From assembly GCA_963747935.1 (NCBI GenBank), contig CAVVGY010000005.1, positions 197,620 through 261,619 of the forward strand: a stretch of DNA of 64,000 bases, in the 5' to 3' direction. Numbering within the stretch: the stretch's first letter is position 1; every line of letters begins with the position of its first letter. The position numbers and the translations under genes were made by a program. The DNA is from an uncultured Thermoleophilia bacterium (GTDB lineage Bacteria > Actinomycetota > Thermoleophilia > UBA2241). Below, piece after piece: positions 12,820-58,745 of the stretch. The notes below the pieces were generated by a model. It saw only the letters and a list, made by a program, of their open reading frames with translations. It made no database searches and was not told where the DNA came from.

Positions 12820-12823
12820 CGGC

Positions 12824-22233: not shown

Positions 22234-23215
22234 TCCGGCCGCTCCGGTCGACCCCCACAACGACCACCGGGCAAAGTCGCGCGCCGCCGCGACCTCGATC
22301 GCGTCCAACGCGATCCTGATCGTGTTCAAGCTCACGGTCGGCATCCTCTCCGGGTCCATCGCCATCATCTCCGAGGCGCTGCACTCCGGGTCGGACCTGG
22401 TGGCGGCGCTCATCGCGTTCTGGTCGGTGCGCCAGGCGGCGCAGCCGCCGGACGAGCGCCACCACTACGGCCACGAGAAGGTCGAGAACCTGAGCGGCGT
22501 CATCGAGGCGCTGCTCATCATCGCCGCCGCCGGCGTGATCATCTTCGAGGGCGTCACCAAGATCATCGACGGCCCCGAGCTCGACCACATCTGGCTGGGC
22601 ATCGGGGTCATGATGGTGTCGGGCGTGGCCAACCTCATCGTCTCCAAGAAGGTGCTGTACCCGGTCGCCAGGCGGACGGAGTCGGCGGCCCTGGAGGCGG
22701 ACGCCGCCCACCTGCTCACCGACGTGTACACGTCGTTCGGCGTGGCCTTCGGCCTGCTGCTGGTCAAGATCACCGGCTGGCCTTACTTGGACCCCATCGC
22801 CGCCATCGCCGTGGCCGTGCTCATCATCAAGACCGGCTACGAGCTGGTGATGCAGTCCACGCGCGTGCTGCTCGACGAGACGCTGCCCGACGACGAGCTC
22901 GAGGAGATCCGCCGCTGCGTGCGCGAGCACCGCGGCGACATCATCAGCGGCTACCACAAGTTGCGCGCGCGCCGGGCCGGCAGCCGGCGGCACGTCGACC
23001 TGCACGTGCTCGTGGACGAGAACCTGACGATCACGCAGGCGCACGACATCGCCGAGCACATCGAGGACGACATCCGCGCCTGCATCCCCAACACGGACGT
23101 GCTCGTCCACGTCGAGCCTCGCACGCACAAGGCGGAGGGCGAAGCGGGCGCCACGCCGCGCCGCGACGAGAGTGAGCCCGCCCCGCCCGGCGACGCCGGC
23201 GAGGCGGCCGGCTAG
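22208..23215 (+). CDS. Cation diffusion facilitator family transporter
   Basis: ATG 22208. SEALHSGSDL, HYGHEKVE, AAHLLTDV, C-terminal cytoplasmic domain. Stop is TAG 23213-23215. Confidence 0.85.
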   Translation: MATKAHKGSPAAPVDPHNDHRAKSRAAATSIASNAILIVFKLTVGILSGSIAIISEALHSGSDLVAALIAFWSVRQAAQPPDERHHYGHEKVENLSGVIEALLIIAAAGVIIFEGVTKIIDGPELDHIWLGIGVMMVSGVANLIVSKKVLYPVARRTESAALEADAAHLLTDVYTSFGVAFGLLLVKITGWPYLDPIAAIAVAVLIIKTGYELVMQSTRVLLDETLPDDELEEIRRCVREHRGDIISGYHKLRARRAGSRRHVDLHVLVDENLTITQAHDIAEHIEDDIRACIPNTDVLVHVEPRTHKAEGEAGATPRRDESEPAPPGDAGEAAG

Positions 23216-24483
23216 AAGATGAACGGTGACGCGACCAGCGTCACCGAGAGCCCGATCAGCGCGATCGAGAACGCCCAGGCGACGGTGTTGTAGACGCGGC
23301 CGTTCACGTGCTCGCCCATCACCCGCGGGTCGTTGATGATCTTGAGCACGTAGATGAGGATGATCGGCAGCAGGATGCCGTTCACGTCCTGGCTCAGGAG
23401 CATCACCTTGACCAGTGGCAGGCCGGGGATGATGGCGACGAGCGCCGGCACGACGATGAACGCCGTCAGGATGCCGTTGAACGCAGGCGCCTCGTCGAAC
23501 TTCTTGTCCAGGCCGCTCTCGAGGCCGAACGCCTCGCAGATCGCGTAGGCGGTGGTCAGCGGCAGGATCGCCGCGCCGAGGATCGAGACGTTGAGCAGGC
23601 CGAACCCGAAGATCCATTCGGCGGCCCGCCCGGCGACGGGCTCGAGGGCGCGGGCCGCCTCCTGCGCGGTCTGGACCACGATGCCCGACTTCCAGAGCGT
23701 GGCGGCGCAGGCCACCACGATGAAGAAGTCGATGGCGTCGGTGAAGATCGCGCCCACCACGACCTCGATCCGCGTGGTCACGTACTGCCGGATCGAGATG
23801 CGCTTGTCCACGATGTACGCCTGGATGAAGAACTGACCCCAGGGCGTGATGGTGGTGCCGATGGCGGCCACGACGGTGAGCAGCCAGAGGCTTCCGGCAT
23901 GGACCTGCGGGCGCACCGAGCCGTGGAGCGCCGCCCCCCAGTCGGGGCGGGCGAGAAAGCCCGCCACGATGTAGGCGGCGTAGACGGCCGTCAGGAGCAG
24001 GAACACACGCTCGACCTTGCGGAAGCTCGCGCGTGTCACCAGGAGCCACACCCCCGCGGCCACCGGCGGCACGCTCAGCCAGGCCGGCACGCCGGCAAGG
24101 CTGAACGCCGCCGCCACGCCGCTGAACTCGGCCACCGTGGTGCCGAAGTTGGCGACCAGGAGGGCGAGCATGGCGAACGCCGTCACCCTCAGGCTGAACT
24201 TCTCGCGGATGAGCGCCGCCAGGCCTTTGCCGGTCACGGCGCCCATGCGCGCGCCCATCTCCTGGGTGACCGCGAGGATGGGCGTGATGAGCACCAGCAG
24301 CCACAGCAGGCTGTAGCCCCAGCGCGAGCCGATGACCGACCAGGTGGTGATGCCGCCGGCGTCGTTGTCGGACGCGGCGGCGATGAGCCCGGGGCCGACC
24401 ACGGCGAGCACCACCATCAGCCGCGTGCGGCCGACGCGGCCGGCGAGCCGTGTTCCTAGGCGCCGACGGCCTCCGCGGGCCAT
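23212..24483 (-). CDS. NRAMP-related transporter, non-canonical metal site (NRMT-like), copy 2 of tandem pair
   Basis: 423 aa, 11-12 TM helices. TM1 has GPGLIAAASDNDAGG instead of DPGN. TM6 has GTTITPWGQFF instead of the Met-Pro-His motif. Confidence 0.85.
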   Translation of the reverse strand: MARGGRRRLGTRLAGRVGRTRLMVVLAVVGPGLIAAASDNDAGGITTWSVIGSRWGYSLLWLLVLITPILAVTQEMGARMGAVTGKGLAALIREKFSLRVTAFAMLALLVANFGTTVAEFSGVAAAFSLAGVPAWLSVPPVAAGVWLLVTRASFRKVERVFLLLTAVYAAYIVAGFLARPDWGAALHGSVRPQVHAGSLWLLTVVAAIGTTITPWGQFFIQAYIVDKRISIRQYVTTRIEVVVGAIFTDAIDFFIVVACAATLWKSGIVVQTAQEAARALEPVAGRAAEWIFGFGLLNVSILGAAILPLTTAYAICEAFGLESGLDKKFDEAPAFNGILTAFIVVPALVAIIPGLPLVKVMLLSQDVNGILLPIILIYVLKIINDPRVMGEHVNGRVYNTVAWAFSIALIGLSVTLVASPFIF

Positions 24484-24502
24484 CTGTGCCGCCTCCCGCG
24501 CA

Positions 24503-25774
24503 TCACGTGAACAGTGGCGAGAGGAGCAGGATGGCGCTCATGCCGATGAGTGCGACGGTGAATGTCCAGGCGATCACATTCCGGACCTTCCCGTTCGTGT
24601 GCTCGCCCATCACCCGGGAGTCGTTGATCATGAGCAGCGTGAAGATGAGGATCACCGGCAGCAGGACGCCGTTGAGCGACTGGGCGACGAGGATCACGTT
24701 CACCAGCGGCAGGCCGGGGATGATGGCGACAGCCGCCGGCACGAACATCAGGAACGTGATGATGCCGTTGAACACCGGGGCGTCGCGGAACGAGTTGTCC
24801 AGGCCGCTCTCGAAGCCGAAGGCCTCGCAGACCACGTAGGCGGTGGCCAGCGGCAGCACGCCGGCGGCGAGGATCGAGACGCTGAGCAGTCCGATGGCGA
24901 AGAGGTACTGGGCGGCGGCGCCGAGAAACGGCACGAGGGCCATCGCCGCCTCCTCTGCCGACTGCACCACGATGCCGTCGTCGTAGAGCGTGGCGGCGCA
25001 GGCGAGCACGATGAAGAAGTCGATCGTCGTCATGAACACTGACCCGGCGTAGATCTCGTACTTGGTGTACTTGAACTGCGCCCACGGCACCTTCTTGTCC
25101 ACCACGGCCGCCTGGATGAAGAACTGACCCCAGGGCGTGAGCGTGGTGCCGATGGCGGCGATCACGGTGAAGATCCACAGGCTGTCCCACTGGACGTACG
25201 GGTGCGTGGCCCCGTGGAGCGCGGCGCTCCAGTCGGGGCCGGCCAGGATGCCGCTGGCCACGTAAGTGAGCAGCACGAACCCGAGTACGAGGAGGACGCG
25301 CTCCACCTTGCGGTACGAGCCGCGCGTGACGAGCAGCCAGATGCCCAGGGCCACCACGGGCACCGCGATGTAGGGCGGCACGTGGAAGAGGCTGCTGGCG
25401 GCGGCGACGCCCGAGAACTCCGCCACGGTGGTGCCGAAGTTCGCGAGTACCGTGGCGAGGATCGCGAGGGCGGTGATCTTGAGGCTGAAGTTCTCGCGGA
25501 TGAGCCCGGCCAGCCCGCGTCCCGTGACCACGCCGACGCGGGCGTTCATCTCCTGCACGATCGCGAGGATGGGTGTGATCAGCACCAGCAGCCAGATCAT
25601 GCTGTAGCCGTAGCGCGAGCCGATCACCGACCACGTGGTGATGCCGCCGGCGTCGTTGCCGGCGTTGGCGGCGATGAACCCCGGCCCCACCATCGCGAGG
25701 ATGACGAGCAGCCGGGTGCGGCCGACGCGGCCGGCCAGCCGGAGGCCGCCTACACGGCGGGGAGTCTGCGCCAT
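24503..25774 (-). CDS. NRAMP-related transporter, non-canonical metal site (NRMT-like), copy 1 of tandem pair
   Basis: 423 aa. Clear paralog of 23212-24483 (GPGFIAANAGNDAGG; GTTLTPWGQFF). Confidence 0.85.
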   Translation of the reverse strand: MAQTPRRVGGLRLAGRVGRTRLLVILAMVGPGFIAANAGNDAGGITTWSVIGSRYGYSMIWLLVLITPILAIVQEMNARVGVVTGRGLAGLIRENFSLKITALAILATVLANFGTTVAEFSGVAAASSLFHVPPYIAVPVVALGIWLLVTRGSYRKVERVLLVLGFVLLTYVASGILAGPDWSAALHGATHPYVQWDSLWIFTVIAAIGTTLTPWGQFFIQAAVVDKKVPWAQFKYTKYEIYAGSVFMTTIDFFIVLACAATLYDDGIVVQSAEEAAMALVPFLGAAAQYLFAIGLLSVSILAAGVLPLATAYVVCEAFGFESGLDNSFRDAPVFNGIITFLMFVPAAVAIIPGLPLVNVILVAQSLNGVLLPVILIFTLLMINDSRVMGEHTNGKVRNVIAWTFTVALIGMSAILLLSPLFT

Positions 25775-25787
25775 CGTCGAGGCCTCC

Positions 25788-27071
25788 TCAATGGAAGATC
25801 CTCGGCAGGCGCTTCTTCCACGCGAGCGGAAGCACCAGGTCGATGGCGTCGTCGATGGTGATGATGCCGTGCAGTTCGCCGTCCGCGTCCACGACGGGGA
25901 GGGCGAGCAGGTTGTACTTGGCGATCACCTCGGTGATCTCTTCTTCGCTGGCCTCGGGGCGCACGGAGACGGGGTTCTCCGTCATGAACTCGCGCACCTT
26001 GCGGTCCGGCGCGCTCATGACCAGCTCGCGCAGAGAGAAGACGCCGCGGAGGTGCTCTGAGCGGTCCACCACGTAGATGTAGTAGACCGTCTCGGCCTCT
26101 TCTTCCTGCGTGCGCAGCCGCTCGATCGCCTTGTAGGCGGTGTCGTCGAGGCGCGCCCACGCGTAGTTCGGGGTCATGATGCCGCCGGCGGAGTGCTCCG
26201 GGTAGCTGAGCAGCTCGCGCATGTCCTCGGCGTCGTCCTTCTCCATCATCGCGATGAAGTGCTGGCGCCGGTCGTCGGGCAGGTCCGCCAGCAGGTCGGC
26301 GGCGTCGTCCGGCGACATCTCGTTGAGGATCTCGCTCGCCTTCTCGTCGGGCAGGTCGAGCAGCAGCGACGCCTGGTACGAGGGGTGCAGCTCCTCGAAC
26401 GTGTCGGCGGCCAGGTCGTCCTCGAGCGCGTCGAACACCGCGGCCCGCTCCTCCGGCGAGAGCTCGTGGACGAGCTCGGCGATGTCGGCGGGGTGGAGCA
26501 GTTCCAGCTTGGTCTGGGGGACGGCGAGGCGCACGGCCGCGTCGTCCGTCTGCTCGATGTCGACGTCCTTCCAGTCGATCAGGTGCGGCTTGGGGTGCTG
26601 GCGCGACTTCGCGAGGCGGTCGCCGACCACGGCGAGGCCCACTCGGCGGAGGATGGCGTTGCTGGAGACGTCCACTGCCGCGACGTGCACGAACGGGCCG
26701 TTGCGCAGCAACTGGATGTCGTTGACGCGGATGACCTTGCGGCCCTCGGTGTCGACGAGCTGCTTGTCCAGGAACGTGGCCGAGAGGTTGAGCTCGTCGG
26801 CCTCGAGCTCACGCTCGACGAGCTCGGAGCCGGGCACGCGCAGCATCAGGCCCGACTCCTCGAAGCTGCTGACTGCGTCCCACGGCGCGTAGAGCACCTT
26901 GCCGCGCCGCTTGACGCCCACCGCGGTCACGCGCGGGTAGGCCTGTCGCGTGCTGACCACCAGGTCGTCGAGCGTACCGGCGGATTTGTTCTCGACGTCC
27001 TTGACCGGGCTGCCCAGCAGCTTGCTCAGGTAGAACACAGGCCTCACCTCCTTCGCGTGACCAACGGTCAC
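25788..27071 (-). CDS. Soluble PRC-barrel + MgtE N-terminal domain + CBS-pair protein (no MgtE membrane domain)
   Basis: LHPADIAELVHEL..., SPDDAADLLADLPDD, then two CBS motifs (IMTPNY..; MTENPVSV..LPVVDADGELHGIITIDD). Ends 14 aa later without TM helices. Confidence 0.85.
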   Translation of the reverse strand: MTVGHAKEVRPVFYLSKLLGSPVKDVENKSAGTLDDLVVSTRQAYPRVTAVGVKRRGKVLYAPWDAVSSFEESGLMLRVPGSELVERELEADELNLSATFLDKQLVDTEGRKVIRVNDIQLLRNGPFVHVAAVDVSSNAILRRVGLAVVGDRLAKSRQHPKPHLIDWKDVDIEQTDDAAVRLAVPQTKLELLHPADIAELVHELSPEERAAVFDALEDDLAADTFEELHPSYQASLLLDLPDEKASEILNEMSPDDAADLLADLPDDRRQHFIAMMEKDDAEDMRELLSYPEHSAGGIMTPNYAWARLDDTAYKAIERLRTQEEEAETVYYIYVVDRSEHLRGVFSLRELVMSAPDRKVREFMTENPVSVRPEASEEEITEVIAKYNLLALPVVDADGELHGIITIDDAIDLVLPLAWKKRLPRIFH

Positions 27072-27103: not shown

Positions 27104-27130
27104 CCGGACGCGCAGAGCGAAGGGGCGATC

Positions 27131-27290
27131 CTCTCTCGTCCCAGCTTTAGCACAACACACCGTAGAGGTCAGGGCCTCAGCCGTTTCGGGCAAAACCTTG
27201 TGCCGGTAGTGCCTGTCCTACGCGTTGGCGTCTCTGGACGTTTCCGCGCAACGGCCTCTATGTGTGCCGGAGCCTCACCTAACGAGGAAC
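27131..27290 (-). promoter_or_regulatory. M-box (ykoK leader) Mg2+ riboswitch aptamer
   Basis: Minus strand reads CGUUAGGUGAGGCUCC ... GUCCAGAGACGCCAACGCGU ... UGUGCUAAAGCUGGGACGAGAG. These match, from memory, the conserved blocks of the B. subtilis mgtE M-box (CGUUAGGUGAGGCUCC / GUCCAAAGACGCUAAUGGGU / AGUGCUAAAGCUCUACGA). Confidence 0.85.
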
Positions 27291-27430
27291 TGCGCCTGGT
27301 TGACGCTCGGTCAACGTACCCCTGCACTCCGGCAGTGTCAAGGCGGACCCCGGTGGTATACTTGGCGCCGCCGAGGGCCGGCGCCGACACGGGCGCCGGC
27401 TTCTGTGCGAAGGCCGATGGGAGGCCCCGC

Positions 27431-31107: not shown

Positions 31108-31611
31108 ATGGACGAGGTGCAGATCGGTGAGGCGTTCATCGGCGACGGCGCCGACGCGGCGCACGTCAATACGGTGCTGGGACGGCGCGACGGACCCGTA
31201 GGGACGGCGTGGGCCACGGCGCTGGCGACGCCCCGCGCCGGCCACGTCCCGTTCGTGGCGGTGGTGCGGCCAGGGCTCGCCGTCCAGCCCATGACCCTGT
31301 TCGTCAACAAGGCGGCCATCGAGCCCGGCAGGCACGGGGACCTCACGTGGGGCGCGGCCCAGGCCGGCGTCGCCGCTGGAGTGGCGGATGCGGTGGCGGA
31401 GGGCGTCGTCCCGCAGGGTGAGGTCGCGGAGTTGGCGCTGATCGCCGCGGTGTGGGTGAACCCGGCGGCGCAGGACGAGGACGCCGTGTTCGCCAACAAC
31501 CGCGAGGCGGCTCTGACCGCCCTGCGCAACGGACGGGAGAGCGCGCCGCCCGTGGAGGACGTGCTGGCGGCGCGCGACGACCCGTGGAACCCCTTCTTCA
31601 GGGCGCGCTGA
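31108..31611 (+). CDS. fae: Formaldehyde-activating enzyme (Fae) homolog
   Basis: MDEVQIGEAFIGDGADAAHVNTVLG...FVNK...AQAGVAAGVADAVAEGVVP is collinear with Fae of methylotrophs ([20 protein letters not shown]..., recalled from memory). Confidence 0.8.
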   Translation: MDEVQIGEAFIGDGADAAHVNTVLGRRDGPVGTAWATALATPRAGHVPFVAVVRPGLAVQPMTLFVNKAAIEPGRHGDLTWGAAQAGVAAGVADAVAEGVVPQGEVAELALIAAVWVNPAAQDEDAVFANNREAALTALRNGRESAPPVEDVLAARDDPWNPFFRAR

Positions 31612-39020: not shown

Positions 39021-39034
39021 CCACCCGGGTGGAT
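39021..39034. promoter_or_regulatory. Operator palindrome CCACC-CG-GGTGGAT, site 1 (tetR promoter)
   Basis: Lies 14 nt downstream of a TTGGCG-N17-TAGTCT promoter (38979-39007) and 16 nt upstream of GTG 39050. Confidence 0.65.
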
Positions 39035-39049
39035 AGGAAGAGGGCGACC

Positions 39050-39736
39050 GTGACCACATCCAAGAAGAGTGCGCGGGGCAAGCTGCAGTTCCCGTTCGAG
39101 GATCCCGTCGAGACCCTGCCCGCTACGGCGCAGAAGATCCTCAAGGCCGCGACCACGCTGCTGGCGGAGAGGGGCTACGAGGCCGTCACGCTCGAGAACG
39201 TCGCCACCGAGGCGGGCGTGAACAAGGCCTCCATCCGCTACAACTTCGGCAACAAGGCGGGCCTCATCATGGCCGTCGCCGACGCGCTCATCCACAACGA
39301 GTGCCTGCGCCTGGCCGCCGACACGGAGAGCGTGCCGGAGGAGGAGCGGCTGCACGCGGCCATGGTCGGCATCCGCCGCATGATCGTGGACGCCGACTCG
39401 TTCCGCGGGTTCTTCGACATCCTGCCGCACGCGTTCCGCGACCCCGAGCTGCGCGAGCGCATGTTCGCGCTGTACGAGTGGTGGTACCACCAGAACCTCA
39501 CGTGGCTCGGCCTCGCCGGGCCGGGCGCGGAGAGCAACGAGATGCTCATGGGACTGGCCGAGCTCATCGCGGCCATCCCCGACGGCCTCTCGGTGCAGGC
39601 CGGCCTCAACCCGGACGGCTTCGAGCTCAGCCGGCCGCTCGCCACGCTCGAGTTCCTGCTGCGCAACTCGATGGTCCAGCTGCTGGAGATGGCCGCGAGC
39701 GCAGGCGATGCAGAGGCGGCCGCGGCGACGTCCTGA
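39050..39736 (+). CDS. TetR/AcrR family transcriptional regulator
   Basis: GTG 39050 after AGGAAGAGGG. HTH VTLENVATEAGVNKASIRYNFGNKAGL. The ORF-track start at 39029 lies inside the operator. Confidence 0.85.
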   Translation: MTTSKKSARGKLQFPFEDPVETLPATAQKILKAATTLLAERGYEAVTLENVATEAGVNKASIRYNFGNKAGLIMAVADALIHNECLRLAADTESVPEEERLHAAMVGIRRMIVDADSFRGFFDILPHAFRDPELRERMFALYEWWYHQNLTWLGLAGPGAESNEMLMGLAELIAAIPDGLSVQAGLNPDGFELSRPLATLEFLLRNSMVQLLEMAASAGDAEAAAATS

Positions 39737-39798: not shown

Positions 39799-39814
39799 AT
39801 CCACCTAGGTGGAT
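39799..39814. promoter_or_regulatory. Operator palindrome ATCCACC-TA-GGTGGAT, site 2
   Basis: Perfect 16-bp palindrome. Its centre is 108 bp from the centre of site 3. Confidence 0.65.
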
Positions 39815-39877: not shown

Positions 39878-39905
39878 TTGACAACCCCCCATTTGCACCT
39901 ATTCT
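39878..39905 (+). promoter_or_regulatory. Candidate promoter TTGACA-N16-TATTCT of the mtbB operon
   Basis: Hexamers at 39878-39883 and 39900-39905. Operator site 3 starts 3 nt after the -10. Confidence 0.55.
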
Positions 39906-39907
39906 TT

Positions 39908-39921
39908 TCCACCCAGGTGGG
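39908..39921. promoter_or_regulatory. Operator palindrome TCCACC-CA-GGTGGG, site 3
   Basis: Immediately downstream of the -10 element of the mtbB promoter. Confidence 0.65.
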
Positions 39922-39964: not shown

Positions 39965-41386
39965 GTGGCTTCGATCGTCACGCGCATGGGTGACGGCAGC
40001 ACCGTCCAGATGACCCGCGACGAGATCCGCAGGGAGATCGTCGAGGGGTCTGAGGCCGCGGCGGTGAAGGCCAAGGTCCCCGTACTCGAGGAGAACGAGG
40101 TCGACTACCTCGTCGACATGTTCTGTTGCCCCAGCCGCGTGTGGGGCGTGGAGCGCGGCCACGAGGCCGTCATGACCAAGGACGGCGGCACCAACACGCT
40201 CATCTCGTCGCGGCTCTCGAGCGGCATCGCCGCGCCGATCGGCCGCGAGACGGCCGTCAGGCTGTTCGAGCGGGCGTTCGCGTTCGACTCCATGGAAGTC
40301 GGCCACATCGACTACTCCGTGAAGCCGAGCAAGTTCATCGTCAGCGTGGAGCAGGAGCACATGGAACTGCTCCAGCACACCACCGTGTTTCCGCTCTTCT
40401 ACGGGTTCATGCCGAACCTGGGCCTCTACTACCGGCCCGACGGGCAGTTCGAGAACCCGTCCGACCTCTTGCCGCTGGGCAAGATCGCCGAGGCGCGGCG
40501 CACGCAGGAGGAGGCCCTGGAGGCCTGCCACGACGACGTCGTCTGGCAGAGCAAGATGTTCGCCGAGACCGGCGCCGACGGCATCAACTACGACACCGTG
40601 GCGTCCACCGGCGACGCCGAGTTCCTCGCCACTCTCCGCGCCACCGAGACCATCTCGTCCGAGACCCACATGCCGGTCGAGGTGAGCATGGCGGCCGAGA
40701 TGGTGCTGGGGTTCCACGGCGAGCTCGAGTACAAGGGCACCCGGCTCGCCGGGCTGTGGCCGCACCAGCAGATGAAGGTGGTCGAGCAGGCCGGCGCCGC
40801 GATCTTCGGCCCCGTGGTCAACAACAACAGCAAGAAGTCGTGCGCCTGGAACGTCGCCCGGGCGGTCACGTTCGTCAAGGCCTGCACCAAGGACGCGACC
40901 ATCCCCATCCACCCCAACGTGGGCAACGGTGTGGGCGGCGTGCCGATGTTCGAGGTCTCGCCGATGGACATGGTCAGCCGGGCGAGCGCCGCGATGATCG
41001 AGATCGGCAAGGCCGACGGGTTGTAGGTGGGTACCGGCGACCCGAACGGCATGGGTATGGCGCACGCGCTGGCCTCGTCGATGGGTGGCATCAAGACCGC
41101 GGGAGATCTCGTGGCCAGGATGCAGCTCAGCAGGAAGATGAGGCTTCCGGAGGCCAAGCAGTACGTGGCCGACAAGCTCGGCGTGAGCGTCTTCGACCTG
41201 TCCGACTCGACCGTGATGCGCACCGTGCGCGAGGAGTTCGACATCGGCGTCGTCACCGCCGTCCCCGGGCTCGCCAAGGGCCTCGAGGCCAAGTCGCGTA
41301 TCGCCGACCTGCTCGACATCCGCATCAACTCCGTCGAGCGCCTCAAGGCCAAGACGGGACTGGGCGCGCCGGCCGGAGCCGTCTGA
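39965..41386 (+). CDS. mtbB: Dimethylamine:corrinoid methyltransferase MtbB with in-frame UAG (putative pyrrolysine) at 41024-41026
   Basis: GTG 39965 after GGAGGGGG. VASIVTRMGDGSTVQMTRDEI...MEVGHIDYSVKP...FPLFYGFMPNLGLYYRPDGQFENP...LAGLWPHQQ...ARAVTFVK...IEIGKADGL-TAG-VGTGDPNGMGMAHALA...AGDLVARMQLSRKM. Collinear over its full length with Methanosarcina MtbB as I remember it (..VAGVDGI-Pyl-IGVGDPLGM..). The ORF track splits it into 39836-41026 and 41027-41386 in the same frame. Confidence 0.9.
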
Positions 41387-41396: not shown

Positions 41397-42023
41397 ATGA
41401 AAGACCAGCTCAAGCAAGCCATCATCGACGGCAACGAGGGCGTCGCCCTGGCGATGACCCAGGCGCTGCTCGCCACCGGGGCCTCGGCCCGTGAGATCTT
41501 AGACGAGGGCCTGCTCCCGGGCATGGAGGTCGTGGGCACGCGCATGCGCGAGGGCGAGTGCTTCATCCCCGAGGTGCTGCTCTCCGCCCGGGTCATGCAG
41601 GCCTGCCTCGACCTGCTGCGCCCGCACATGGCGGCCGGCGAGGAGGCCGGCATGGGCACGGTCGTGATCGGCACCGTCGAGGGCGACCTGCACGACATCG
41701 GCAAGAACCTCGTCGGCATGCTCCTCCAGGGCGCCGGCTTCACGGTCGTGAACCTCGGCACCGGGGTGACGGCCGCCGACTTCGTCGCCGCGGTCAGGGA
41801 GCACTCACCCGCCATCATCGGCATGAGCGCCCTGCTCACGACCACGCTGCCGCACATGAGCGAGACGATCGCGCAGCTCAAGGCCGAGGGCCTCCGGGAC
41901 GCGGTCAAGGTGATGGTCGGCGGCGCCCCCGTGACGGCCGCCTACGCCGAGGAGATCGGCGCCGACGGCTACGGCGCCAACGCCGGCATGGCCGTGGAGC
42001 GGGCGAAGGAGCTGGTGGGGTAG
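41397..42023 (+). CDS. Methylamine-type corrinoid (B12-binding) protein, MtbC/MttC-like
   Basis: N-terminal helical cap plus Rossmann B12 domain with the DxHxxG motif (GDLHDIGKN) and GMSALLTTT. Stop is TAG 42021-42023. Confidence 0.85.
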   Translation: MKDQLKQAIIDGNEGVALAMTQALLATGASAREILDEGLLPGMEVVGTRMREGECFIPEVLLSARVMQACLDLLRPHMAAGEEAGMGTVVIGTVEGDLHDIGKNLVGMLLQGAGFTVVNLGTGVTAADFVAAVREHSPAIIGMSALLTTTLPHMSETIAQLKAEGLRDAVKVMVGGAPVTAAYAEEIGADGYGANAGMAVERAKELVG

Positions 42024-42122
42024 GCTGGAGGCCGTGGAGGCCGCCCGCGCCGCGTGCGGACGGCGAGAGACCAGAGCCTCCGCCAGGGGGCGGCGGATCC
42101 TGATGGGGAACGGGGTGGACTG

Positions 42123-43553
42123 ATGACCGTGCGGGTCGAGTGGCTCACGGCAGACGAGCGCGAGGCGATCTACACCCAGGCGCTCGACATCCTCGAGCGC
42201 GTCGGCATGCGCATGAAGGGCGCCGCGGTGCTCGACCTGCTGCGCGAGGCCGGCGCGGAGGTGGACGACTCCGGGACGGCGCGCCTGCCGGCAGGGCTCG
42301 TCGAGCGCGCCGTCGCCGCGTGCCCGCGCGACCTGCTCATGGCCGGCGAGACGCCGGACGACGACGTGCTGCTCGACGGCTCCCGGACGTTCTTCAACGT
42401 CAGCGGCTGCGCGGCCAAGACCCTGGACCAGCAGACCGGCGCCGTCCGGCCCTCCACGCTGGACGACCTGCGCGACGGCACCATCGTGCTGGACGCCACG
42501 CCCGAGCTCGACGTCGTCTGGACGTTCCTCACCGCCACCGACGTGCCGCTCGAGCGGCGGGAGCTCGTCGAGTACTACACGTACCTCACGGAGACCACCA
42601 AGCCGCTGGTGTTCGTCGACTGCCCCGAGAAGACCGACCACGTGCGCCACATCATCGAGATCGTGTCCGGGGACCTCGAGAAGTTCCGGCAGCGGCCGCG
42701 CATGTCGCTGCTGTGCGCGGCCCGCTCGCCGCTCGAGGTCAACGGCCAGCTGCTCGACGTGGCCTGCGAGTTCGCGTCGCTCGGCGCTCCCATCTGGGTC
42801 TACTCCATGCCCATCTCCGGGGCCACGGCTCCCGTCACCCCGGCCGGTACCCTGGCGCTGCTCTGGGCCGAAGTACTGGGCACCCTGACCGCCATCCAGA
42901 CGGCGGCGCCCGGGGCCCCCATCCTCGCCTGTTGCGGGCCCGGGATCCTCGACATGCGCGCCACCACCATGTCGCTCGGCAACCTCGAGAGCACGCTCAT
43001 GGGCGCGGCGGCGGTCGAGATCGGCCACCACCTCGGGATCCCGGTGCACAACTCCGGCCTCTCCACCGACGCCAAGCACCTCGGCGTGCAGGCCGGCTAC
43101 GAGAAGGGCCTCAAGGTGATGGCGGCGGTCGCCACCGGCGCCGACATCTGCAGCGGCGGCTTCGGGTTCCTCGACTCCTCGAGCACGTTCAGCCTGCGCA
43201 TGATCCCCGTGGACGCCGAGATCGCCGCCATGGCGACGCGCATGGCGCGGGGCATCGAGGTGACGCCCGACACCCTTCTTGCGGACTCCATCGGGCGTGT
43301 GGGTATCGGCGGGGACTTCCTGCGCGAGAAGGAGACACGCCGCCGCATCCGCGCCGGCGAGCACTTCGTACCGCGCATCGGCTCGCGGCTGCCGTTCGAA
43401 CAGTGGCTCGCCGAGGGCCGCACCGAGACGGACGCCGCCGACGACGCGGTGCGAGCCGCGCTGGCCGCGCGCGAAGAGCGCGGCCCGCGGCTGTCGGAGG
43501 ACCAGCGGCGCGCGCTCGCCGCGGTCTGCGACGTGACCACGACCACTACGTGA
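42123..43553 (+). CDS. MttB-superfamily methyltransferase without pyrrolysine (quaternary-amine type)
   Basis: ATG 42123 (MTVRVEWLTADEREAIY..). At the Pyl-equivalent column it reads SG-L-STDAKHLGVQAGYEKGL, with Leu in place of Pyl. Confidence 0.85.
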   Translation: MTVRVEWLTADEREAIYTQALDILERVGMRMKGAAVLDLLREAGAEVDDSGTARLPAGLVERAVAACPRDLLMAGETPDDDVLLDGSRTFFNVSGCAAKTLDQQTGAVRPSTLDDLRDGTIVLDATPELDVVWTFLTATDVPLERRELVEYYTYLTETTKPLVFVDCPEKTDHVRHIIEIVSGDLEKFRQRPRMSLLCAARSPLEVNGQLLDVACEFASLGAPIWVYSMPISGATAPVTPAGTLALLWAEVLGTLTAIQTAAPGAPILACCGPGILDMRATTMSLGNLESTLMGAAAVEIGHHLGIPVHNSGLSTDAKHLGVQAGYEKGLKVMAAVATGADICSGGFGFLDSSSTFSLRMIPVDAEIAAMATRMARGIEVTPDTLLADSIGRVGIGGDFLREKETRRRIRAGEHFVPRIGSRLPFEQWLAEGRTETDAADDAVRAALAAREERGPRLSEDQRRALAAVCDVTTTTT

Positions 43554-43597
43554 CGTGACCATTCCGAGCAATCAGAGATGAGAAGGGAGGTGCGCCC

Positions 43598-45064
43598 ATG
43601 AAGCGGAACCACCAGGCCGGCCGCACGCGCCGGGAGGGCTGCGAGTTCCGGGTCCTGACCGACGACGACCTCGCCGACATCCACCTCGGGACCCTGGAGG
43701 TCCTGGAGCGGACGGGCGTGTACGTCGAGGACGAGGAGGCCCGCGAGGTCTTCGCCGGGGCCGGCGCCACGGTCGACGCCAAAGGCGTCGTCCGCATCCC
43801 CGGCCACGTCGTCGAGCAGGCCGTGCGCACGGCGCCCAGCAAGCTCCGGCTCGCCGGCCGCAACCCCAGGAACGACATCGTGCTCGAGGCCGGGCGCGTC
43901 GGCTTCACCAACTTCGGTGAGGGCGTCGCGATCATCGACCCGTACACCGGCGAGCTCAAGGTACCGACCAAGCAGGACGTCGCCGACACCGCCAAGGTCG
44001 TCGACGCGCTGCCCAACGTGGACGTCTACGAGCGCGCCGTGGTGGCCGAGGACGTCGACCAGCGCGTCGTCCACCTGCACCAGTACGAGGCCTGGGCGAC
44101 CAACACGTCCAAGCACGGATTCATGGGCTCCGGCAACGGCTGGCTCTCCCGCAAGCTGGTCGAGATGGCGTCCGTCATCGCCGGCGGGCGCGAGAAGCTC
44201 AAGGAGCGCCCGATCATCAGCTTCATCACCTGCCCCGTGAGCCCGCTCAAGCTGGTGCAGGACACGTGCGAGATCATCATGACCGGCGCCCGCGAGCACA
44301 TCGCCGTGAACATCCTCTCGATGGCGATGGCCGGCGGCTCGTCGCCGGTGACGCTGGCGGGCACGCTGGTCACGCACAACGCCGAGGTGCTCGCCGGCAT
44401 CACGCTGAGCCAGCTCACCCAGCCGGGCGCCAAGGTCGTGTACGGCAGCTCCACGACGGCCATGGACCTGCGGCTCGCCTCCGCGAGCGTCGGCTCGCCC
44501 GAGTGCGGCCTCATCAACGCCGCCGTCGCCCAGATCGCCCGCTTCTACCTGCTGCCCAGCTGGGTAGCGGGTGCGTAGGGCGACGCCAAGACGGTCGATG
44601 CCCAAAGCGGCCACGAGAAGACCCTGACCGGCCTGATGCCGGCGTTGGCAGGCGCCAACCTGATCTACGGTCTGGGGATGATCGAGTCGGGCATGACCTT
44701 CGACTTCGGCCAGCTCGTCATGGACGACGAGTTCGCCGGCATGATCAAGCAGTGCGTCCGCGGCATCCGCGTGGACGACGAGGCGCTCGCCATCGACGTG
44801 ATCGACGACATCGGTCCGTTCGGCGACTTCCTCAGCCACGACCACACCATGGCGCACATGCGCGAGCAGTCGCAGCCTGCGGTGATCGACCGTCGCGTCC
44901 GGGAGGACTGGACGACCAACGGCTCGCTCACCATCCAGGACCGCGCCCTCGCCAAGGCGCGCAAGATCCTCGAGACCCACCAGCCGGACCCGCTGCCGGA
45001 CGGCGTGGCCGACGAGCTCAAGGAGATCATCCGCGCGGCCGAGCGCGAGCTCGGCGTCGGGTGA
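43598..45064 (+). CDS. mttB: Trimethylamine:corrinoid methyltransferase MttB with in-frame UAG (putative pyrrolysine) at 44576-44578
   Basis: ..NILSMAMAGGSSPVTLAGTLVTHNAEVLAGITLSQLTQPGAKVVYGSSTT...[45 protein letters not shown]. Methanosarcina MttB (from memory) reads ..YVAGS-Pyl-SDAKVPDDQAGHEKT. The ORF track splits it into 43598-44578 and 44636-45064 in the same frame. Confidence 0.9.
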
Positions 45065-46444: not shown

Positions 46445-47662
46445 GTGAACCAGCGTCCCGAGAACTGCGAGCTCATCTCGCCCTTCGGCGGCGGGCCTCT
46501 GGTCGACCTGGTGGTCCACGACCCCGACGAGCGCGCCGCGCTGCTCGAGCGGGCCCAGAACCTGCCTGTGGTGCCGCTCTCGTTGCGCGCCCAGTACGAC
46601 CTCGAGATGCTCGCGGTGGGCGCGTTCTCGCCGCTGGACAGGTTCATGCCGCACGACGAGTACGAGTCGGTCCTCTACGAGATGCGCCTCGAGGGCGGCG
46701 AGCTGTTCCCCATCCCGCTCGCCGTGCCCTGCCGCGAGGAGGTCCTCCGCGGGCACCCGCGCGAGATCGCGCTGTCGGACGAGGAGGGCGTCATCCTGGC
46801 CCTGCTCGAGGTGGACGAGGTCTACCCGGCCGACATCCTGCGCGAGATGCGCGCGGTGCTGGGCGGCCGGGACAGCGCGCACCCGCTCGTCATCGAGGCC
46901 AAGGGCTGGCCGAGTCACTATCTCGCCGGACGCCCGCGCGTGCTCGACCTGCCGCGCCACCGGCTGCACGGACCCATGTGCCTCACGCCGGCGGAGTTGC
47001 GCGCGCGCCTCGCCACCATGGGCAACTCGACCGTGGTGGCGTTCCAGACGCGCAACCCCATGCACCGCATCCATGAGGAGCTCACCAAGCGCGCGCTCAG
47101 GACGGTCGGCGGCACGCTCCTCATCCATCCGGCCGTGGGCGTCACGCGGCCCCAGGACGTCGGCGCGGCGCTCCGTGTGGAGGCCTACGAGGTCCTCGTG
47201 CACAACTACTACGACTCGTCGAACACGCTGCTCTCCCTCATGCCTCTGGCCATGCGCTTCGCCGGGCCGCGGGAGGCCGTGTGGCACGCGATCATCCGGC
47301 GCAACTACGGCGCCACCCACATCATCGTGGGGCGGGACCACGCCGGGCCTGGTCCCGACTCGCACGGGGTGCCGTTCTACGGGCCCTACGACGCGCAGGC
47401 CATGGCCGAGCACTACTCGCACGAGATCGGGGTGAAGACCATTTTGGCGCGGGAGCTCGCCTACCTCACCGACGAAGACCGCTACGTGGAGCTCAACGAG
47501 GTCCCGTACGGCGCGCGCGTCTCTTCCATCTCGGGCACGCAGGTGCGCGAGGAGTACCTGGCCAAGGGCAAGAAGCTGCCCGAGTGGTTCACCCGTCCCG
47601 AAGTCGCGGAGGTCCTGCAGCGGGCGTACGCGCAGGCCGGCGATGCGGCGCCCGGCGCCTGA
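46445..47662 (+). CDS. sat: Sulfate adenylyltransferase (ATP sulfurylase, Sat type), no APS-kinase domain
   Basis: FQTRNPMHRIHEELTKRA...GRDHAGPG... Confidence 0.9.
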   Translation: MNQRPENCELISPFGGGPLVDLVVHDPDERAALLERAQNLPVVPLSLRAQYDLEMLAVGAFSPLDRFMPHDEYESVLYEMRLEGGELFPIPLAVPCREEVLRGHPREIALSDEEGVILALLEVDEVYPADILREMRAVLGGRDSAHPLVIEAKGWPSHYLAGRPRVLDLPRHRLHGPMCLTPAELRARLATMGNSTVVAFQTRNPMHRIHEELTKRALRTVGGTLLIHPAVGVTRPQDVGAALRVEAYEVLVHNYYDSSNTLLSLMPLAMRFAGPREAVWHAIIRRNYGATHIIVGRDHAGPGPDSHGVPFYGPYDAQAMAEHYSHEIGVKTILARELAYLTDEDRYVELNEVPYGARVSSISGTQVREEYLAKGKKLPEWFTRPEVAEVLQRAYAQAGDAAPGA

Positions 47663-49354
47663 CGGCCGCACCCGGCTGAGCCTCCCCACGCGCCGCGACC
47701 TGCTGCACGACCTGGTCGCGGGGCTCACCGTCGGGGCCTCGCAGGTCGGCAATGCGATGGCCTACACCATGCTCGCCGGGGTGCCGCCGGTCCACGGCCT
47801 CTACGCCGTCGCGGCGGGTACGCCGGCGGGGGCGCTCACCGGCGGGTCGCAGCGCATGCCGATGGTGCCTACGGCGGCGCTCTGCCTGGCGGCCGGCGGC
47901 GCGCTCGCCACGCTCCCGGCGGACAAGCGCGTCGTCGGCCTCTTCACGCTGGCCGCGCTCACCGGCGCCCTCATGCTCGTCCTCGGCCTCCTGCGCGCCG
48001 GCGGCCTTGTGCGCTTCGTCTCCAACGCGGTGATGATCGGCCTCATGGGCGGGATCGGCGTCACGATCCTGCTGTCGCAACTCGGTGCGCTCACCGGCTT
48101 CTCCAGCCGCTACGACAACAAGGTGCTCAAGGCCGCCGATCTGTTCATGCACCCGGGCGCGTCGGACGTGGAGACCACCGTCATCGGACTCGTCACGGTC
48201 GCGCTGGTCGTGGCGCTCAGGCATACGCGGCTCAAGCTCTTCGCCATGGCGCTGCCGCTGCTGGTCATGACGGTGGTCGTGGCGCTGCTCCAGGTGGACT
48301 CGATCGCGGTCGTGGGTGACATCGCACCCATCCCGCGCTCGTTGCCCCTGCCCCGGCTTCCCGATCTGGCGCTGGTGCCGGTCGCTGGTGGTGCCGGCGC
48401 TGTCCCTCGTGATCATCGGCCTCGTCCAGGGGGCGGGCATCAGCCGCACCGTCGCCAACGCGGACGGCTCGTTCGGCGACACCAGCCGGGACTTCGTGGG
48501 GCAGGGGGTGGCCAACGTGTTCTCGGGGATGTTCAGCGGCGGCGTGGTGGGCGGCTCCGTGCAGGCGACGGCGCTCAACGTGGGCGCGGGCGCGCGCACG
48601 CGGTGGTCATCGGTCATCACCGCGGCCTTCGTCGTGGTGGTGCTGCTCGCGGCCGCCCCGCTCGTGCAGCAGGTGCCGCTCGCCGTCACCGCCGGCATCC
48701 TCATCGTGGCCGCGACCAGCGCGCTGCAGCCGCGCGCCGCGCTGGACGTGTGGAGGGCCGACAGGGTGTCCGCCCTCATCATGCTCGTCACGTTCGCCCT
48801 GGTCCTGATCGTGCCTCTGCAGTACGCCGTGCTCGCCGGGGCGGGGATCTCGGTGCTCAAGTACCTCTACCTCTCGTCGGTCGACGTGCACGTCAAACAG
48901 GTCGTGCTGGACGGCGACGGGCTGCCGAGGGAGCTGGACGCTCCTGCGGAGCTCTCCGGCGACGACGTCACCGTGCTGGACATCTACGGCAGCCTGTTCT
49001 TCGCGGCCGCCCCCAAGATCCGCTCGTCCCTGCCGGCGGTGGGCGAGCGCGCACTGCCCCGTGGTGGTGCTGCGCCTCCGCGGCCGCGGCACGCTGCACA
49101 GCGCGACCATCGTGGTGCTGCGCGAGTACGCGGCCGAGTGCGCGGCCGGGGGCGGCCGGCTGTACCTCGCCGGCGTCGGCAGCGAGATGGAGGAGCAGCT
49201 CAGGCGCACGGGAGTGCTGGACCTGCTGGGCCCCGACGCCGTGGTCACGGCCACGGACGAGTTGTACGGCGCCTGCGCCCTGGCGCAGGCGCGGGGACGC
49301 GACTGGCTTGCGGCCCGCACCGACGGTCTGCCGGGAGGCCCTCGCACCGTCTGA
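47643..49354 (+). pseudogene. SulP-family anion transporter with STAS domain, two frameshifts (about 48381 and 49054)
   Basis: Three consecutive frames. ..AGLTVGASQVGNAMAYTMLAGVPPVHGLY..PDLALVP | SLVVPALSLVIIGLVQGAGISR..DIYGSLFFAAAPKI..GERA | CPVVVLRLRGRGTLHSATIVVL.. Confidence 0.85.
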
Positions 49355-49424
49355 CCGGCGCGGCCGCCGGGACCGGCACTCGGGTCGGCGCCTGCGTGAT
49401 CGGCCGACCCGCGCTACCGACGTG

Positions 49425-49649
49425 TCAGTCGCCGCCCTGGAGCCCGCGTTCCGGGTGCTCGCCGCACCAGTCGTCCGGCTCGGTGAGCGGGAAATCGCGC
49501 GGGGGGCTCGGCGGGTACCGGCGGCACTCACCCTTGTCGTTGGCGGTGCGGATCTCCACCTGCTCGGACGCTGCCTCCGACCAGCGGTACTCGATCCGGT
49601 CGGGCAGCCGCGACCACATGGGGCAGGTCGCACACCTGGGTTCGTCCAT
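49425..49649 (-). CDS. Hypothetical small Cys-containing protein (74 aa)
   Basis: ATG 49649 after AGGGG (MDEPRCATCPMWSRLPDRIEYRW..). Weak evidence. Confidence 0.35.
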   Translation of the reverse strand: MDEPRCATCPMWSRLPDRIEYRWSEAASEQVEIRTANDKGECRRYPPSPPRDFPLTEPDDWCGEHPERGLQGGD

Positions 49650-49729
49650 GGAGCACCCCTTCTCGCTGAGCGGTTCGGCAGGAGCGTACCCTCCGCGCCC
49701 CCCAGAGCGCCATCCGGATCCCGGAGCGC

Positions 49730-50575
49730 TCAACCCACCGTGATGCACACGATGCCGGCGAACACGAGGCCGGCGGCGACCCACTGCAGGGGCCTGAGCC
49801 GTTCGTGCAGTACGGCGGCCGCCCACGCCATCGTGACCGCCGGGTTGAGCCAGCCGAGGACTCCCACCACGCTCAGGTAGCCGTGGGCGGTCGCGGAGGT
49901 GAACAGGATGTTGGCGGCCGCGATCAGCACGCCGACGACCACGAGCGTGGGGAGCGCTCGCCTGCGCAGCCGGATCGTCGGGCGGGTGGCGGCGGCGGCG
50001 ACGAGCAGGGTCAGCGCCGCCGTGGTGCGCGCCACCGTCACCGTGTACAGGGGCGCGGCCTTGTCGCCGTAGCTCAGGGCGACGAGGAAGAGGCCCATGG
50101 CGACTGCGCAGAGGATCGCCATGAGGATGCCGGTCCGGGCGCGCGAGCGCGCCTCGCCGGCATCCCTCCGTCCCGTGCTCGAGATCAGGATCATCCCGAG
50201 CAGCGCACAGGCGATGCCGAGGACCTGGACGGCGCCGGGCCGCTCACCGGTCGCGACGCCCCACAGTACCGGCACGAGAGCGGCGCCGGCGATGATCGGC
50301 GACACGAGGCTCAGGTCGGCGAGGGCGAACGCCCGGTAGCCGAGGACGACCCCGACGCCGCCGACCAGGCCGCCCACCGCCGGCGCGACCAGGGCGCCCG
50401 GCGTGGGACGGTCGGGCGTGAGCGCCACGAGCAGGACGACCAGCGAGAGGGCGGCGACGACCTGCCCGCCCAGCGCGACGGTCCAGGCGGTCGAGCGTCG
50501 CGATTCGAGGCCGGCGAGGAAGTCCGACGTGCCCCACGAGAAGCTCGCCAGCAGGGCGAGGAGGGCGGCCGTCAC
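49730..50575 (-). CDS. EamA/DMT family transporter
   Basis: 281 aa, 10 TM helices (SFSWGTSDFLAG..). Lies 14 nt downstream of the Lrp-like gene. Confidence 0.8.
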   Translation of the reverse strand: MTAALLALLASFSWGTSDFLAGLESRRSTAWTVALGGQVVAALSLVVLLVALTPDRPTPGALVAPAVGGLVGGVGVVLGYRAFALADLSLVSPIIAGAALVPVLWGVATGERPGAVQVLGIACALLGMILISSTGRRDAGEARSRARTGILMAILCAVAMGLFLVALSYGDKAAPLYTVTVARTTAALTLLVAAAATRPTIRLRRRALPTLVVVGVLIAAANILFTSATAHGYLSVVGVLGWLNPAVTMAWAAAVLHERLRPLQWVAAGLVFAGIVCITVG

Positions 50576-51352: not shown

Positions 51353-51367
51353 CCCACCCGGGTGGAT
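51353..51367. promoter_or_regulatory. Operator palindrome CCCACC-CG-GGTGGAT, site 4
   Basis: 13 nt downstream of the -10. An extra CCACCC half-site lies about 20 nt further on. Confidence 0.6.
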
Positions 51368-57182: not shown

Positions 57183-58634
57183 ATGCGTGCCCACATGACC
57201 TGGCTGGACGAGGCCGAGAAGCGGTCGTTCGTCGACGAGGCGCTGGGGATCCTCGAGCGCGTGGGCGTCGAGCTCAAGGGGTCGGCGGCGCTGCCCGTCC
57301 TCGCCGACCTCGGGGCGGACGTCGACTTCTCCACCGGGGTCGTCCGCCTGCCGGCCGAGCTTGTACGGGACACCGTCGAGGCCTGCCCGCGCCGGGTGCT
57401 CTTCGCCGGCGCGTCGCCCGAGTACGACGTGGTACTGGACGACGGGGAGCCGGCACACTTCTGCTCCTCCGGCTGCGCCGCGTTCGTGCTCGACCACGAG
57501 ACCGGCGTCCGGCGTCCCTCCACGCTCACCGACCTTCAGTCGGCCACGATCCTGCTGGACGAGGTGCCCGAGGTCGACGTCATGTGGACCACCATCACGG
57601 CCGGCGACGTGCCCGTGGAGGTCCGCGAGCTGGTCGTCTGCTACGTGGTGCTCACCGAGGCGCGCAAGCACGTGACCCTGGTCGACAGCCCGTCGCAGGC
57701 CGAGCCGCTGCTGCGCATCATGGACATCGTCTCCGGCGACGCGGAGGCCTTCCGCGCGCGGCCGCGGTTCAGCACGCTGCTCACCGCGGCGTCCCCGCTG
57801 CGCATCGACGGCCCGCTGCTCGACTTCCACGCGGTCACGGCCGGTCGCGGGGCGCCGGTGGAGGTCTACACGGTACCCATGGCCGGCGCCACCTCGCCGG
57901 TGACGCTCGCGGGCACCATCGTCCAGGGGCTCGCGGAGTTCCTCGGCGTCGCCACCGCGCTGCGCGCGCTCGCCCCGGAGGCGCGCGTCGTCATGGGCGT
58001 GTCCGGCTCGACCATGGACATGCGCTCCGCCGGCGTCTCGTACGCTTCGCCGGAGTGCACGCTGATGAACGTCGCCTGCGTGGAGCTCGCGCACCACCTC
58101 GGCGTGCCGGCGGCGGTGCCCGGCCTCGCCACCGACGCCAAGTACGCCGGCCTGCAGGCGGGCTACGAGAAGGCGCTCAAGGGTCTCGCGACGGCCGGCG
58201 TGGGCGCCGACGTGCTCAGCGGCGGCGTCGGCATGATCGACTCGGTGAACACGCTGTTCCTGCCGCAGATCGTGCTGGACGCGGAGGTGGTGGGCATGAT
58301 CCGCCGCATCCTGGGCGACGTGGACACGAGCCCCGAGGCGATGCTGGCGGACATGATCGCGCGGGTCGGCATCGGCGGCGACTTCCTCAAAGAGAAGGAG
58401 ACCGCCAGGCGGCTGCGCGCGGGCGAGCACTTCTCGCCGGCGATCTCGTCGCGCCAGGCCTACGACCAGTGGGTCGCGGACGGGCGCGACGAGGTGGCCC
58501 GCGCCCGGGAGCGCATGGATGCGCTCTTCGCGGCGCGGGCGGAGCGGGGCCGCCCGCTCGGCGACGAGCAGCGGGCGGAGCTCGCGCGCGTCTGCGGCGT
58601 CACGCCGGAGATGGCGCGCGCCCTCGGCGACTGA
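57183..58634 (+). CDS. MttB-superfamily methyltransferase without pyrrolysine, second paralog
   Basis: 483 aa. Pyl-equivalent column reads PG-L-ATDAKYAGLQAGYEKAL. Confidence 0.85.
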   Translation: MRAHMTWLDEAEKRSFVDEALGILERVGVELKGSAALPVLADLGADVDFSTGVVRLPAELVRDTVEACPRRVLFAGASPEYDVVLDDGEPAHFCSSGCAAFVLDHETGVRRPSTLTDLQSATILLDEVPEVDVMWTTITAGDVPVEVRELVVCYVVLTEARKHVTLVDSPSQAEPLLRIMDIVSGDAEAFRARPRFSTLLTAASPLRIDGPLLDFHAVTAGRGAPVEVYTVPMAGATSPVTLAGTIVQGLAEFLGVATALRALAPEARVVMGVSGSTMDMRSAGVSYASPECTLMNVACVELAHHLGVPAAVPGLATDAKYAGLQAGYEKALKGLATAGVGADVLSGGVGMIDSVNTLFLPQIVLDAEVVGMIRRILGDVDTSPEAMLADMIARVGIGGDFLKEKETARRLRAGEHFSPAISSRQAYDQWVADGRDEVARARERMDALFAARAERGRPLGDEQRAELARVCGVTPEMARALGD

Positions 58635-58731: not shown

Positions 58732-58745
58732 TCCACCTGGGTGGA
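58732..58745. promoter_or_regulatory. Operator palindrome TCCACC-TG-GGTGGA, site 5
   Basis: Abuts the -10 element, the same layout as site 3. Confidence 0.65.

Follow-up and report, generated by a model that had tools for sequence, protein, structure and literature searches.

A predicted pyrrolysine-encoding mttB gene in an uncultured Thermoleophilia bacterium and a conserved hairpin downstream of its in-frame UAG

Trimethylamine:corrinoid methyltransferase (MttB) depending on pyrrolysine (Pyl) is a textbook enzyme of methanogens. We analysed a 64-kb stretch of DNA (contig CAVVGY010000005.1), hereafter called the window, from an uncultured high-GC bacterium of the Thermoleophilia (Actinomycetota), in which an mttB-like gene at 43598-45064 is interrupted by an in-frame TAG. 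This raises the question whether the UAG is translated and, if so, with which amino acid, or whether it terminates the protein. Judged from the gene, its orthologs and the genomes of its closest relatives, 43598-45064 very probably represents a functional Pyl-encoding mttB gene.

Identity of the gene and position of the UAG

Frame 2 of the forward strand comprises 488 sense positions from 43598 onwards followed by a terminal TGA, the TAG at 44576-44578 (codon 327) being the sole internal stop. An earlier sequence-only reading of the window had described the frame in this way, and our translation agrees with it, including the peptide LLPSWVAGA directly preceding the UAG, which is recovered exactly. 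Scored with the TAG masked, the protein reaches 737.1 bits on TIGR02369.2, the NCBIfam equivalog model of Pyl-type MttB (cutoff 525 bits), and 333 bits on Pfam MTTB. Its best match among solved structures is MttB of Methanosarcina barkeri (7XCL/7XCM), which is matched over the full length with 395 bits. Both the HMMER and the MAFFT alignment place residue 327 on the X at position 334 of chain 7xcl_A, i.e. on Pyl334, which is a Lys in the 7xcm variant, showing that the TAG lies within and not outside of the Pyl column. The M. barkeri sequence context given in the sequence-only reading, YVAGS-Pyl-SDAKVPDDQAGHEKT, is indeed that of the PDB chain.

The similarity extends to the active site. Structural work on M. 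barkeri MttB identifies Pyl as catalytic and Gly110 and Tyr364 as its fully conserved partners, and shows that Met249 moves to admit trimethylamine (PMC9842639). The HMMER alignment assigns these three residues, Gly110, Met249 and Tyr364, to G107, M242 and Y357 of the window MttB, the latter being encoded 3' of the TAG.

To follow the codon through evolution we scanned one genome per GTDB species and obtained 80 orthologous loci with 63-94% identity, mostly from Thermoleophilia metagenome-assembled genomes (MAGs) and from Desulfobacterota. The codon in the Pyl column is TAG in all 80 primary orthologs, covering two phyla, with not a single TAA, TGA or sense codon; over all loci gathered, TAG is found in 120 Pyl-type mttB genes. 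The Pyl-type mttB genes known from Desulfobacterota such as the Olavius delta-1 symbiont and from the Actinobacteriota MAGs Bog-752 and RBG-16-64-13 have TAG in the same column.

Decoding of the UAG

We searched for the Pyl machinery using the catalytic domain of the Methanosarcina mazei pyrrolysyl-tRNA synthetase (PylRS; 100% identical to PDB 2q7e) as query, which revealed pylSc adjoining mttB in Desulfobacterota loci. In Thermoleophilia, the 10-kb regions flanking mttB contained no PylSc and, for the 42 loci examined with ARAGORN, no tRNA either, and the best 80 matches of a PylSc profile scan all came from Desulfobacterota and others, with none from Thermoleophilia. The Thermoleophilia were reached by a DNA pattern composed of two invariant PylSc motifs in GC-rich codons, which uncovered PylSc in dozens of MAGs from Thermoleophilia and other Actinomycetota, including those named bog_752, fen_672 and palsa_645. 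PylSc was found by this means in MAGs having mttB orthologs with 82-92% identity, twice on the same contig as mttB.

The closest relative, MAG MFD02416.bin.2.102, encodes an MttB 94% identical to that of the window within the same gene order, and its pyl cluster contains PylB, PylC, PylD, PylSn and PylSc, each scoring above its equivalog cutoff (Table 1), together with a 73-nt tRNA-Pyl with the anticodon CUA. A MAG with a 91% identical ortholog contains the same pylBCD-pylT-pylSn-pylSc genes, and tRNA-Pyl directly follows PylD at all 10 PylD loci of Thermoleophilia. The decoding machinery presupposed by the sequence-only reading is thus complete in this lineage, and the pyl genes are presumably present in the genome under study as well. 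The Pyl systems of Desulfobacterota and Actinobacteriota share a split pylSn/pylSc, pylBCD, pylT and the hairpin following the UAG described below; they differ in their arrangement, pylS being located at most 10 kb from mttB in Desulfobacterota, whereas the pyl cluster of Thermoleophilia lies elsewhere on the chromosome.

Some further genes were observed in the pyl clusters of Thermoleophilia. A radical-SAM gene other than PylB and a second corrinoid protein (TIGR02370, 222 bits) are located between pylSn and pylSc (locus L264, i.e. MFD02416.bin.2.102, 12108-14671; locus L193, 3602-5389), L264 alone having an additional small gene that by eye resembles S-adenosylmethionine (SAM)-dependent methyltransferases. 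In one Thermoleophilia MAG a retron-type reverse transcriptase (NF038233, 134 bits; locus L162, 2055-2906, reverse strand) is encoded directly beside pylC and pylT.

A UAG that is read through could also be translated with a standard amino acid, delivered by a near-cognate or an ordinary suppressor tRNA. This would fit a window without pyl genes, the supply of Pyl being shown in sibling MAGs and not directly in this genome. We nevertheless regard it as highly improbable, as the sibling MAGs have complete pyl systems including tRNA-Pyl(CUA), as Pyl is catalytic in the solved enzyme (PMC9842639), and as close paralogs which have swapped Pyl for Val, Ala or Leu do so by sense codons and not by TAG, implying that genes retaining the TAG need Pyl itself.

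The coding signal continues past the TAG: the GC content of third codon positions (GC3) is 0.96 on either side of it, in a window of ~70% GC overall. Moreover, the ratio of nonsynonymous to synonymous substitution rates (dN/dS) against eleven orthologs is 0.15-0.29 upstream and 0.17-0.34 downstream of the TAG, showing that selection maintains the protein encoded by the 3' third of mttB, with its catalytic Tyr, in an unchanged frame. This in-frame purifying selection rules out a sequencing error as the source of the TAG. Least probable of all is that the TAG is a true stop, either of a nonsense-mutated pseudogene or between two genes encoding a 326-residue N-terminal product and a C-terminal protein: TAG does terminate ~8 of the 44 other confident open reading frames (ORFs) of the window and an ATG-initiated ORF can be called mechanically at 44636-45064, but an ordinary stop would sometimes be TAA or TGA in the 80 orthologs, frame, GC3 and selection run on across the codon, the catalytic Tyr357 is encoded behind it, and the supposed start codon at 44636 varies among orthologs (ATG, TTG, CTG, TTA or ACG).

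Pyl insertion into a functional MttB is the reading best supported by these data, and some observations weigh against it. Thr111 of M. barkeri MttB is replaced by Glu108 in the window MttB, which is the sole differing active-site position noted. As in other Pyl bacteria, UAG has an ambiguous meaning, since TAG also ends other ORFs of the window, and readthrough of mttB must consequently be partial, conditional or tolerated. Neither a pyl gene nor tRNA-Pyl lies within the window, the only tRNA of which is Arg-CCG, and the pyl machinery is demonstrated in sibling species only. Finally, for the later steps, methyl transfer to tetrahydrofolate and reductive reactivation of the corrinoid, the window yielded neither a methylcorrinoid:tetrahydrofolate methyltransferase nor a RamA-type activase.

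A conserved hairpin downstream of the UAG

When 26 diverse orthologs were aligned over the 105 nt 3' of the UAG, a short stretch became apparent, GCG-TTG-GCA-GGN-GCC-AAC, which is invariant even at synonymous sites and forms a hairpin with a 6-bp stem and a 4-nt loop (folding energy -8.9 kcal/mol; Table 1). We quantified this by a codon-entropy scan of 81 full-length Pyl-mttB genes, covering 218 columns with a conserved degenerate amino acid and a mean entropy of 1.21 bits. Only three of the 218 columns fall below 0.15 bits, and all three belong to the stem: Leu350 (TTG in 80 of 81 genes), Ala351 (GCA in 81 of 81) and Ala353 (GCC in 81 of 81). TTG and GCA are rare choices for a gene with a GC3 of 0.96. 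Gly352, in the loop, has one of the most variable codons (1.81 bits), with a free wobble base.

The hairpin is linked to the presence of the UAG. The motif is contained in 118 of the 120 UAG-containing mttB genes, across two phyla, the two exceptions being 58% identical and encoding ALAGVN, and of its 120 occurrences over all loci, 119 follow a TAG at a distance of exactly 66 nt. Close paralogs (at most 70% identical) in which Val, Ala, Leu or Gly takes the place of Pyl serve as a natural control, as they encode the same peptide ALAGAN with freely varying codons and a broken stem. The sole gene keeping the motif without a TAG has TAT instead, which differs from it by a single base. Among the 120 occurrences of the motif, the outer pair of the stem is G-C in 101, A-U in 14 and G-U in 2, with 3 mismatches. 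With five of the six pairs never varying, covariation statistics give no information; the evidence for the hairpin is the invariance at synonymous sites.

We tentatively suggest that the hairpin might act in cis as an RNA element, specific to UAG-containing mttB mRNAs of a large bacterial clade (Thermoleophilia, Desulfobacterota and others), and influence what becomes of these messages. Positioned at +66, it cannot touch the ribosome decoding the UAG, so that any link to recoding would have to be indirect. Candidate roles would be setting the balance between Pyl insertion and termination, coupling transcription to translation while the ribosome waits at the UAG, or affecting how stable the 3' part of the mRNA is. 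The element is apparently undescribed, and it is the only part of this locus that we did not find described in the literature.

The same bases, GTTGGC-N4-GCCAAC, might instead act as DNA, bound by a dimeric regulator such as the TetR protein of the operon. They do constitute a perfect 6-4-6 palindrome, and the change of the outer pair from G-C to A-T fits the symmetry of a DNA site as well as RNA pairing. We consider this unlikely. The palindrome is unique in the window, and the conserved palindrome of the promoters is another one, CCACC-NN-GGTGG, which is the better candidate for a TetR operator; both facts speak against the hairpin sequence serving this function. It is also kept in Desulfobacterota, whose mttB neighbourhoods differ, with pylS adjoining mttB, and it tracks the presence of the UAG, for which a transcriptional operator has no reason.

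PYLIS elements are collected in Rfam as RF01982, RF02509 and RF02510; the hairpin, at columns 69-84 after the UAG, does not belong to the PYLIS_3 model. RF02510 (PYLIS_3) does match at 44576-44675, starting exactly at the mttB TAG, with 59.6 bits (gathering threshold 38), and a match of RF02509 starts exactly at the TAG of mtbB. We rejected these matches as evidence of RNA structure. The PYLIS_3 consensus structure, which was derived mostly from archaeal genes, is not formed in the window mttB, most of the few pairs of the model being non-canonical, so that the matches reflect similarity of coding sequence and not an RNA element. An independent RNAalifold run on mttB gave a structure differing from PYLIS_3, and folding of the 105 nt 3' of the UAG as a whole is no stronger than that of shuffled sequence (z = -1.04). 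The source paper of PYLIS states that mttB shows no common structure (PMC3639795), and searches for PYLIS in bacteria likewise reported none (PMC1976440; PMC3639795).

For mtbB, the dimethylamine:corrinoid methyltransferase gene of the cluster, a search for an analogous hairpin after the UAG found none. In this gene the codon directly 5' of the UAG (41021-41023) is TTG and the Gly codon at +26 (41102-41104) is GGA in 34 of 34 orthologs, the two being the only zero-entropy columns of 136. Their constancy may reflect an effect of codon context on decoding of the UAG.

Gene cluster, proposed pathway and significance

The cluster has the order threonine aldolase-like gene, TetR regulator, mtbB, corrinoid protein, MttB-like paralog, mttB, sulfotransferase-like gene and ATP sulfurylase (Table 1), most or all of which is found again in the closest Thermoleophilia loci. 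In these, the two halves of mtbB are separated by exactly one codon, and so are those of mttB. MtbB scores 514 bits on TIGR02368 (cutoff 369) and 622 bits on Pfam Dimeth_Pyl, and its Pyl column is TAG in all 34 non-redundant orthologs; this second UAG gene of the operon, also noted in the sequence-only reading, is thus real as well. The corrinoid protein comes closest to the NCBIfam models MtgC and MtbC, with scores under their cutoffs. It is encoded together with mttB, an arrangement kept in sibling loci, and is the probable methyl acceptor for both MtbB and MttB.

Table 1. Features of the mttB locus (window coordinates) and pyl genes of the closest relative
Feature	Position	Strand	Remarks
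TetR/BetI-type regulator, head of cluster	39029..39736	+	Pfam TetR_N and TetR_C_6; start codon uncertain; position kept in sibling loci
Candidate promoter TTGACA-16-TATTCT, then palindrome CCACCCAGGTGG	39878..39920	+	read from sequence
mtbB, dimethylamine:corrinoid methyltransferase	39965..41386	+	in-frame UAG 41024-41026; start GTG 39965 or ATG 39977, uncertain
Corrinoid (B12-binding) protein	41397..42023	+	Pfam B12-binding and B12-binding_2; DxHxxG motif (GDLHDIG) in translation
MttB-superfamily paralog without Pyl	42054..43553	+	Ser at Pyl column; TIGR02369 327 bits, under cutoff of 525
Shine-Dalgarno sequence AAGGGAGGTG	43583..43592	+	strong; 5 nt 5' of ATG 43598; read from sequence
mttB, trimethylamine:corrinoid methyltransferase with in-frame UAG	43598..45064	+	488 residues including predicted Pyl327; NCBIfam TIGR02369.2 and Pfam MTTB
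UAG predicted to be read as pyrrolysine, residue 327	44576..44578	+	alignment to 7xcl_A X334, TAG conservation in orthologs, purifying selection downstream
Hairpin GUUGGC-AGGC-GCCAAC inside mttB, codons A349-N354	44644..44659 (motif 44642-44659)	+	starts 66 nt after UAG
Second MttB-superfamily paralog without Pyl	57183..58634	+	Ala at Pyl column (MAFFT); Pfam MTTB 251 bits
PylB, MFD02416.bin.2.102 cluster			447 bits, cutoff 348
PylC, MFD02416.bin.2.102 cluster			349 bits, cutoff 248
PylD, MFD02416.bin.2.102 cluster			184 bits, cutoff 150
PylSn, MFD02416.bin.2.102 cluster			127 bits, cutoff 51
PylSc, MFD02416.bin.2.102 cluster			323 bits, cutoff 178

In the pathway we propose, tRNA-Pyl(CUA) charged by the split PylSn and PylSc synthetase would decode the UAG at 44576, Pyl being made from lysine by PylB, PylC and PylD encoded elsewhere in the genome, and Pyl insertion would compete with termination, as TAG is still an ordinary stop in other genes. 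By analogy to M. barkeri, the pyrroline ring of Pyl327 would bind and activate trimethylamine, aided by Tyr357 and the backbone of Gly107, and the methyl group would pass to Co(I) of the corrinoid protein (41397-42023). The dimethylamine released would likewise be demethylated by the UAG-containing MtbB.

The palindrome CCACC-NN-GGTGG is present at 39021-39032, 39801-39812 and 39909-39920, the last copy directly 3' of the candidate promoter, and is kept in the tetR-mtbB regions of 11 of 12 sibling loci checked. It likely represents a putative operator of the TetR regulator at the head of the cluster, by which the cluster is probably repressed. Further copies are located at 51354-51365, at 58733-58744 and at 28350; the palindrome is also found upstream of an ATP-binding cassette (ABC)-transporter operon and of an aminotransferase gene adjoining the third MttB paralog, which hints at a shared regulon.

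The non-Pyl MttB superfamily includes both other MttB-like genes of the window as well as MtgB of Desulfitobacterium hafniense (PDB 2QNE) and MtcB, MtpB and MtyB of Eubacterium limosum, enzymes acting on quaternary amines. Its members are of the same TIM-barrel family as the window MttB (286 bits to 2QNE), but where the window mttB has UAG their Pyl column is occupied by a sense codon, for Leu in MtgB. Both window paralogs fail the TIGR02369 cutoff, are 29-31% identical to the UAG gene and match MttB and MtgB about equally, with ~164 and 160 bits for 42054-43553 (29% identical) and ~167 and 163 bits for 57183-58634. The sequence-only reading had assigned Leu to both at the Pyl column; MAFFT places Ser and Ala there and the Leu one residue earlier, a shift by a single residue leaving the conclusion on mttB unaffected.

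Paralogs closer to Pyl-MttB, with 62-70% identity over a 121-residue probe, have TAT (Tyr), GTC (Val), GCC (Ala) or CTC (Leu) as the Pyl codon (locus L056 ~3790, L069 ~1692, L046 ~641, L042 ~19568, L039 and L043 ~12480) and represent natural variants that have lost Pyl, and two or three copies of UAG-containing mttB are present in many Thermoleophilia MAGs. The corrinoid protein gene ends with TAG at 42021-42023 and the following MttB-like paralog is in frame without a stop in between, so that UAG readthrough would fuse the two. We rejected a programmed fusion, as the frames agree in only two of the five sibling loci checked (L001 and L002, not L005, L006 and L008), which is probably a coincidence.

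Additional genes for one-carbon metabolism are located at 31108-31611 and 5132-5977, i.e. a homolog of the formaldehyde-activating enzyme (Fae; 174 bits) and a methylenetetrahydrofolate reductase-like gene. The SulP-family sulfate permease gene at 47643-49743 shows apparent frame changes near 48300-48400 and near 49300, possibly due to a pseudogene or to assembly frameshifts. On the reverse strand, an M-box (magnesium) riboswitch (27124-27293, 144.5 bits) lies upstream of an ORF at 25788-27071, by eye similar to MgtE-type magnesium transporters, and two adjacent membrane-protein ORFs are found at 23212-25774.

With M. barkeri MttB (7XCL/7XCM/7XCN) the window MttB shares UAG/Pyl in the identical column and a B12-binding corrinoid protein encoded nearby; it differs in its bacterial host of ~70% GC and in the methyl group presumably being passed on to tetrahydrofolate and not to coenzyme M. 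Pyl-dependent MttB has been known in bacteria since its description in D. hafniense and the Olavius delta-1 symbiont (Zhang & Gladyshev 2007, PMC1976440), PylRS was reported for two Actinobacteria in a 2022 survey (PMC9630628), and the multi-omics study of Ellenbogen et al. 2023 found by metatranscriptomics that Actinobacteriota MAGs of the genera Bog-752, RBG-16-64-13 and Bog-1198 express Pyl-encoding mttB and mtbB (PMC10805028). The gene analysed here adds one more instance of this published trait of related MAGs, being well supported and unsurprising to a specialist. In practical terms it is a warning that standard gene callers break Pyl genes at the TAG.

The hairpin could matter more than the gene itself. 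Bacteria that still use UAG as a stop have to tell Pyl codons and terminators apart, and a short element under strong synonymous constraint which tracks the UAG offers a concrete object for mutation tests; if our suggestion were true, it would be the first sequence-supported candidate for the long-sought cis-element of bacterial Pyl genes. For the organism, the data suggest that this actinobacterium can probably demethylate trimethylamine and dimethylamine by means of the 22nd amino acid, so that in soils, peat and digesters Thermoleophilia would count among the anaerobes that compete for methylamines with methylotrophic methanogens.

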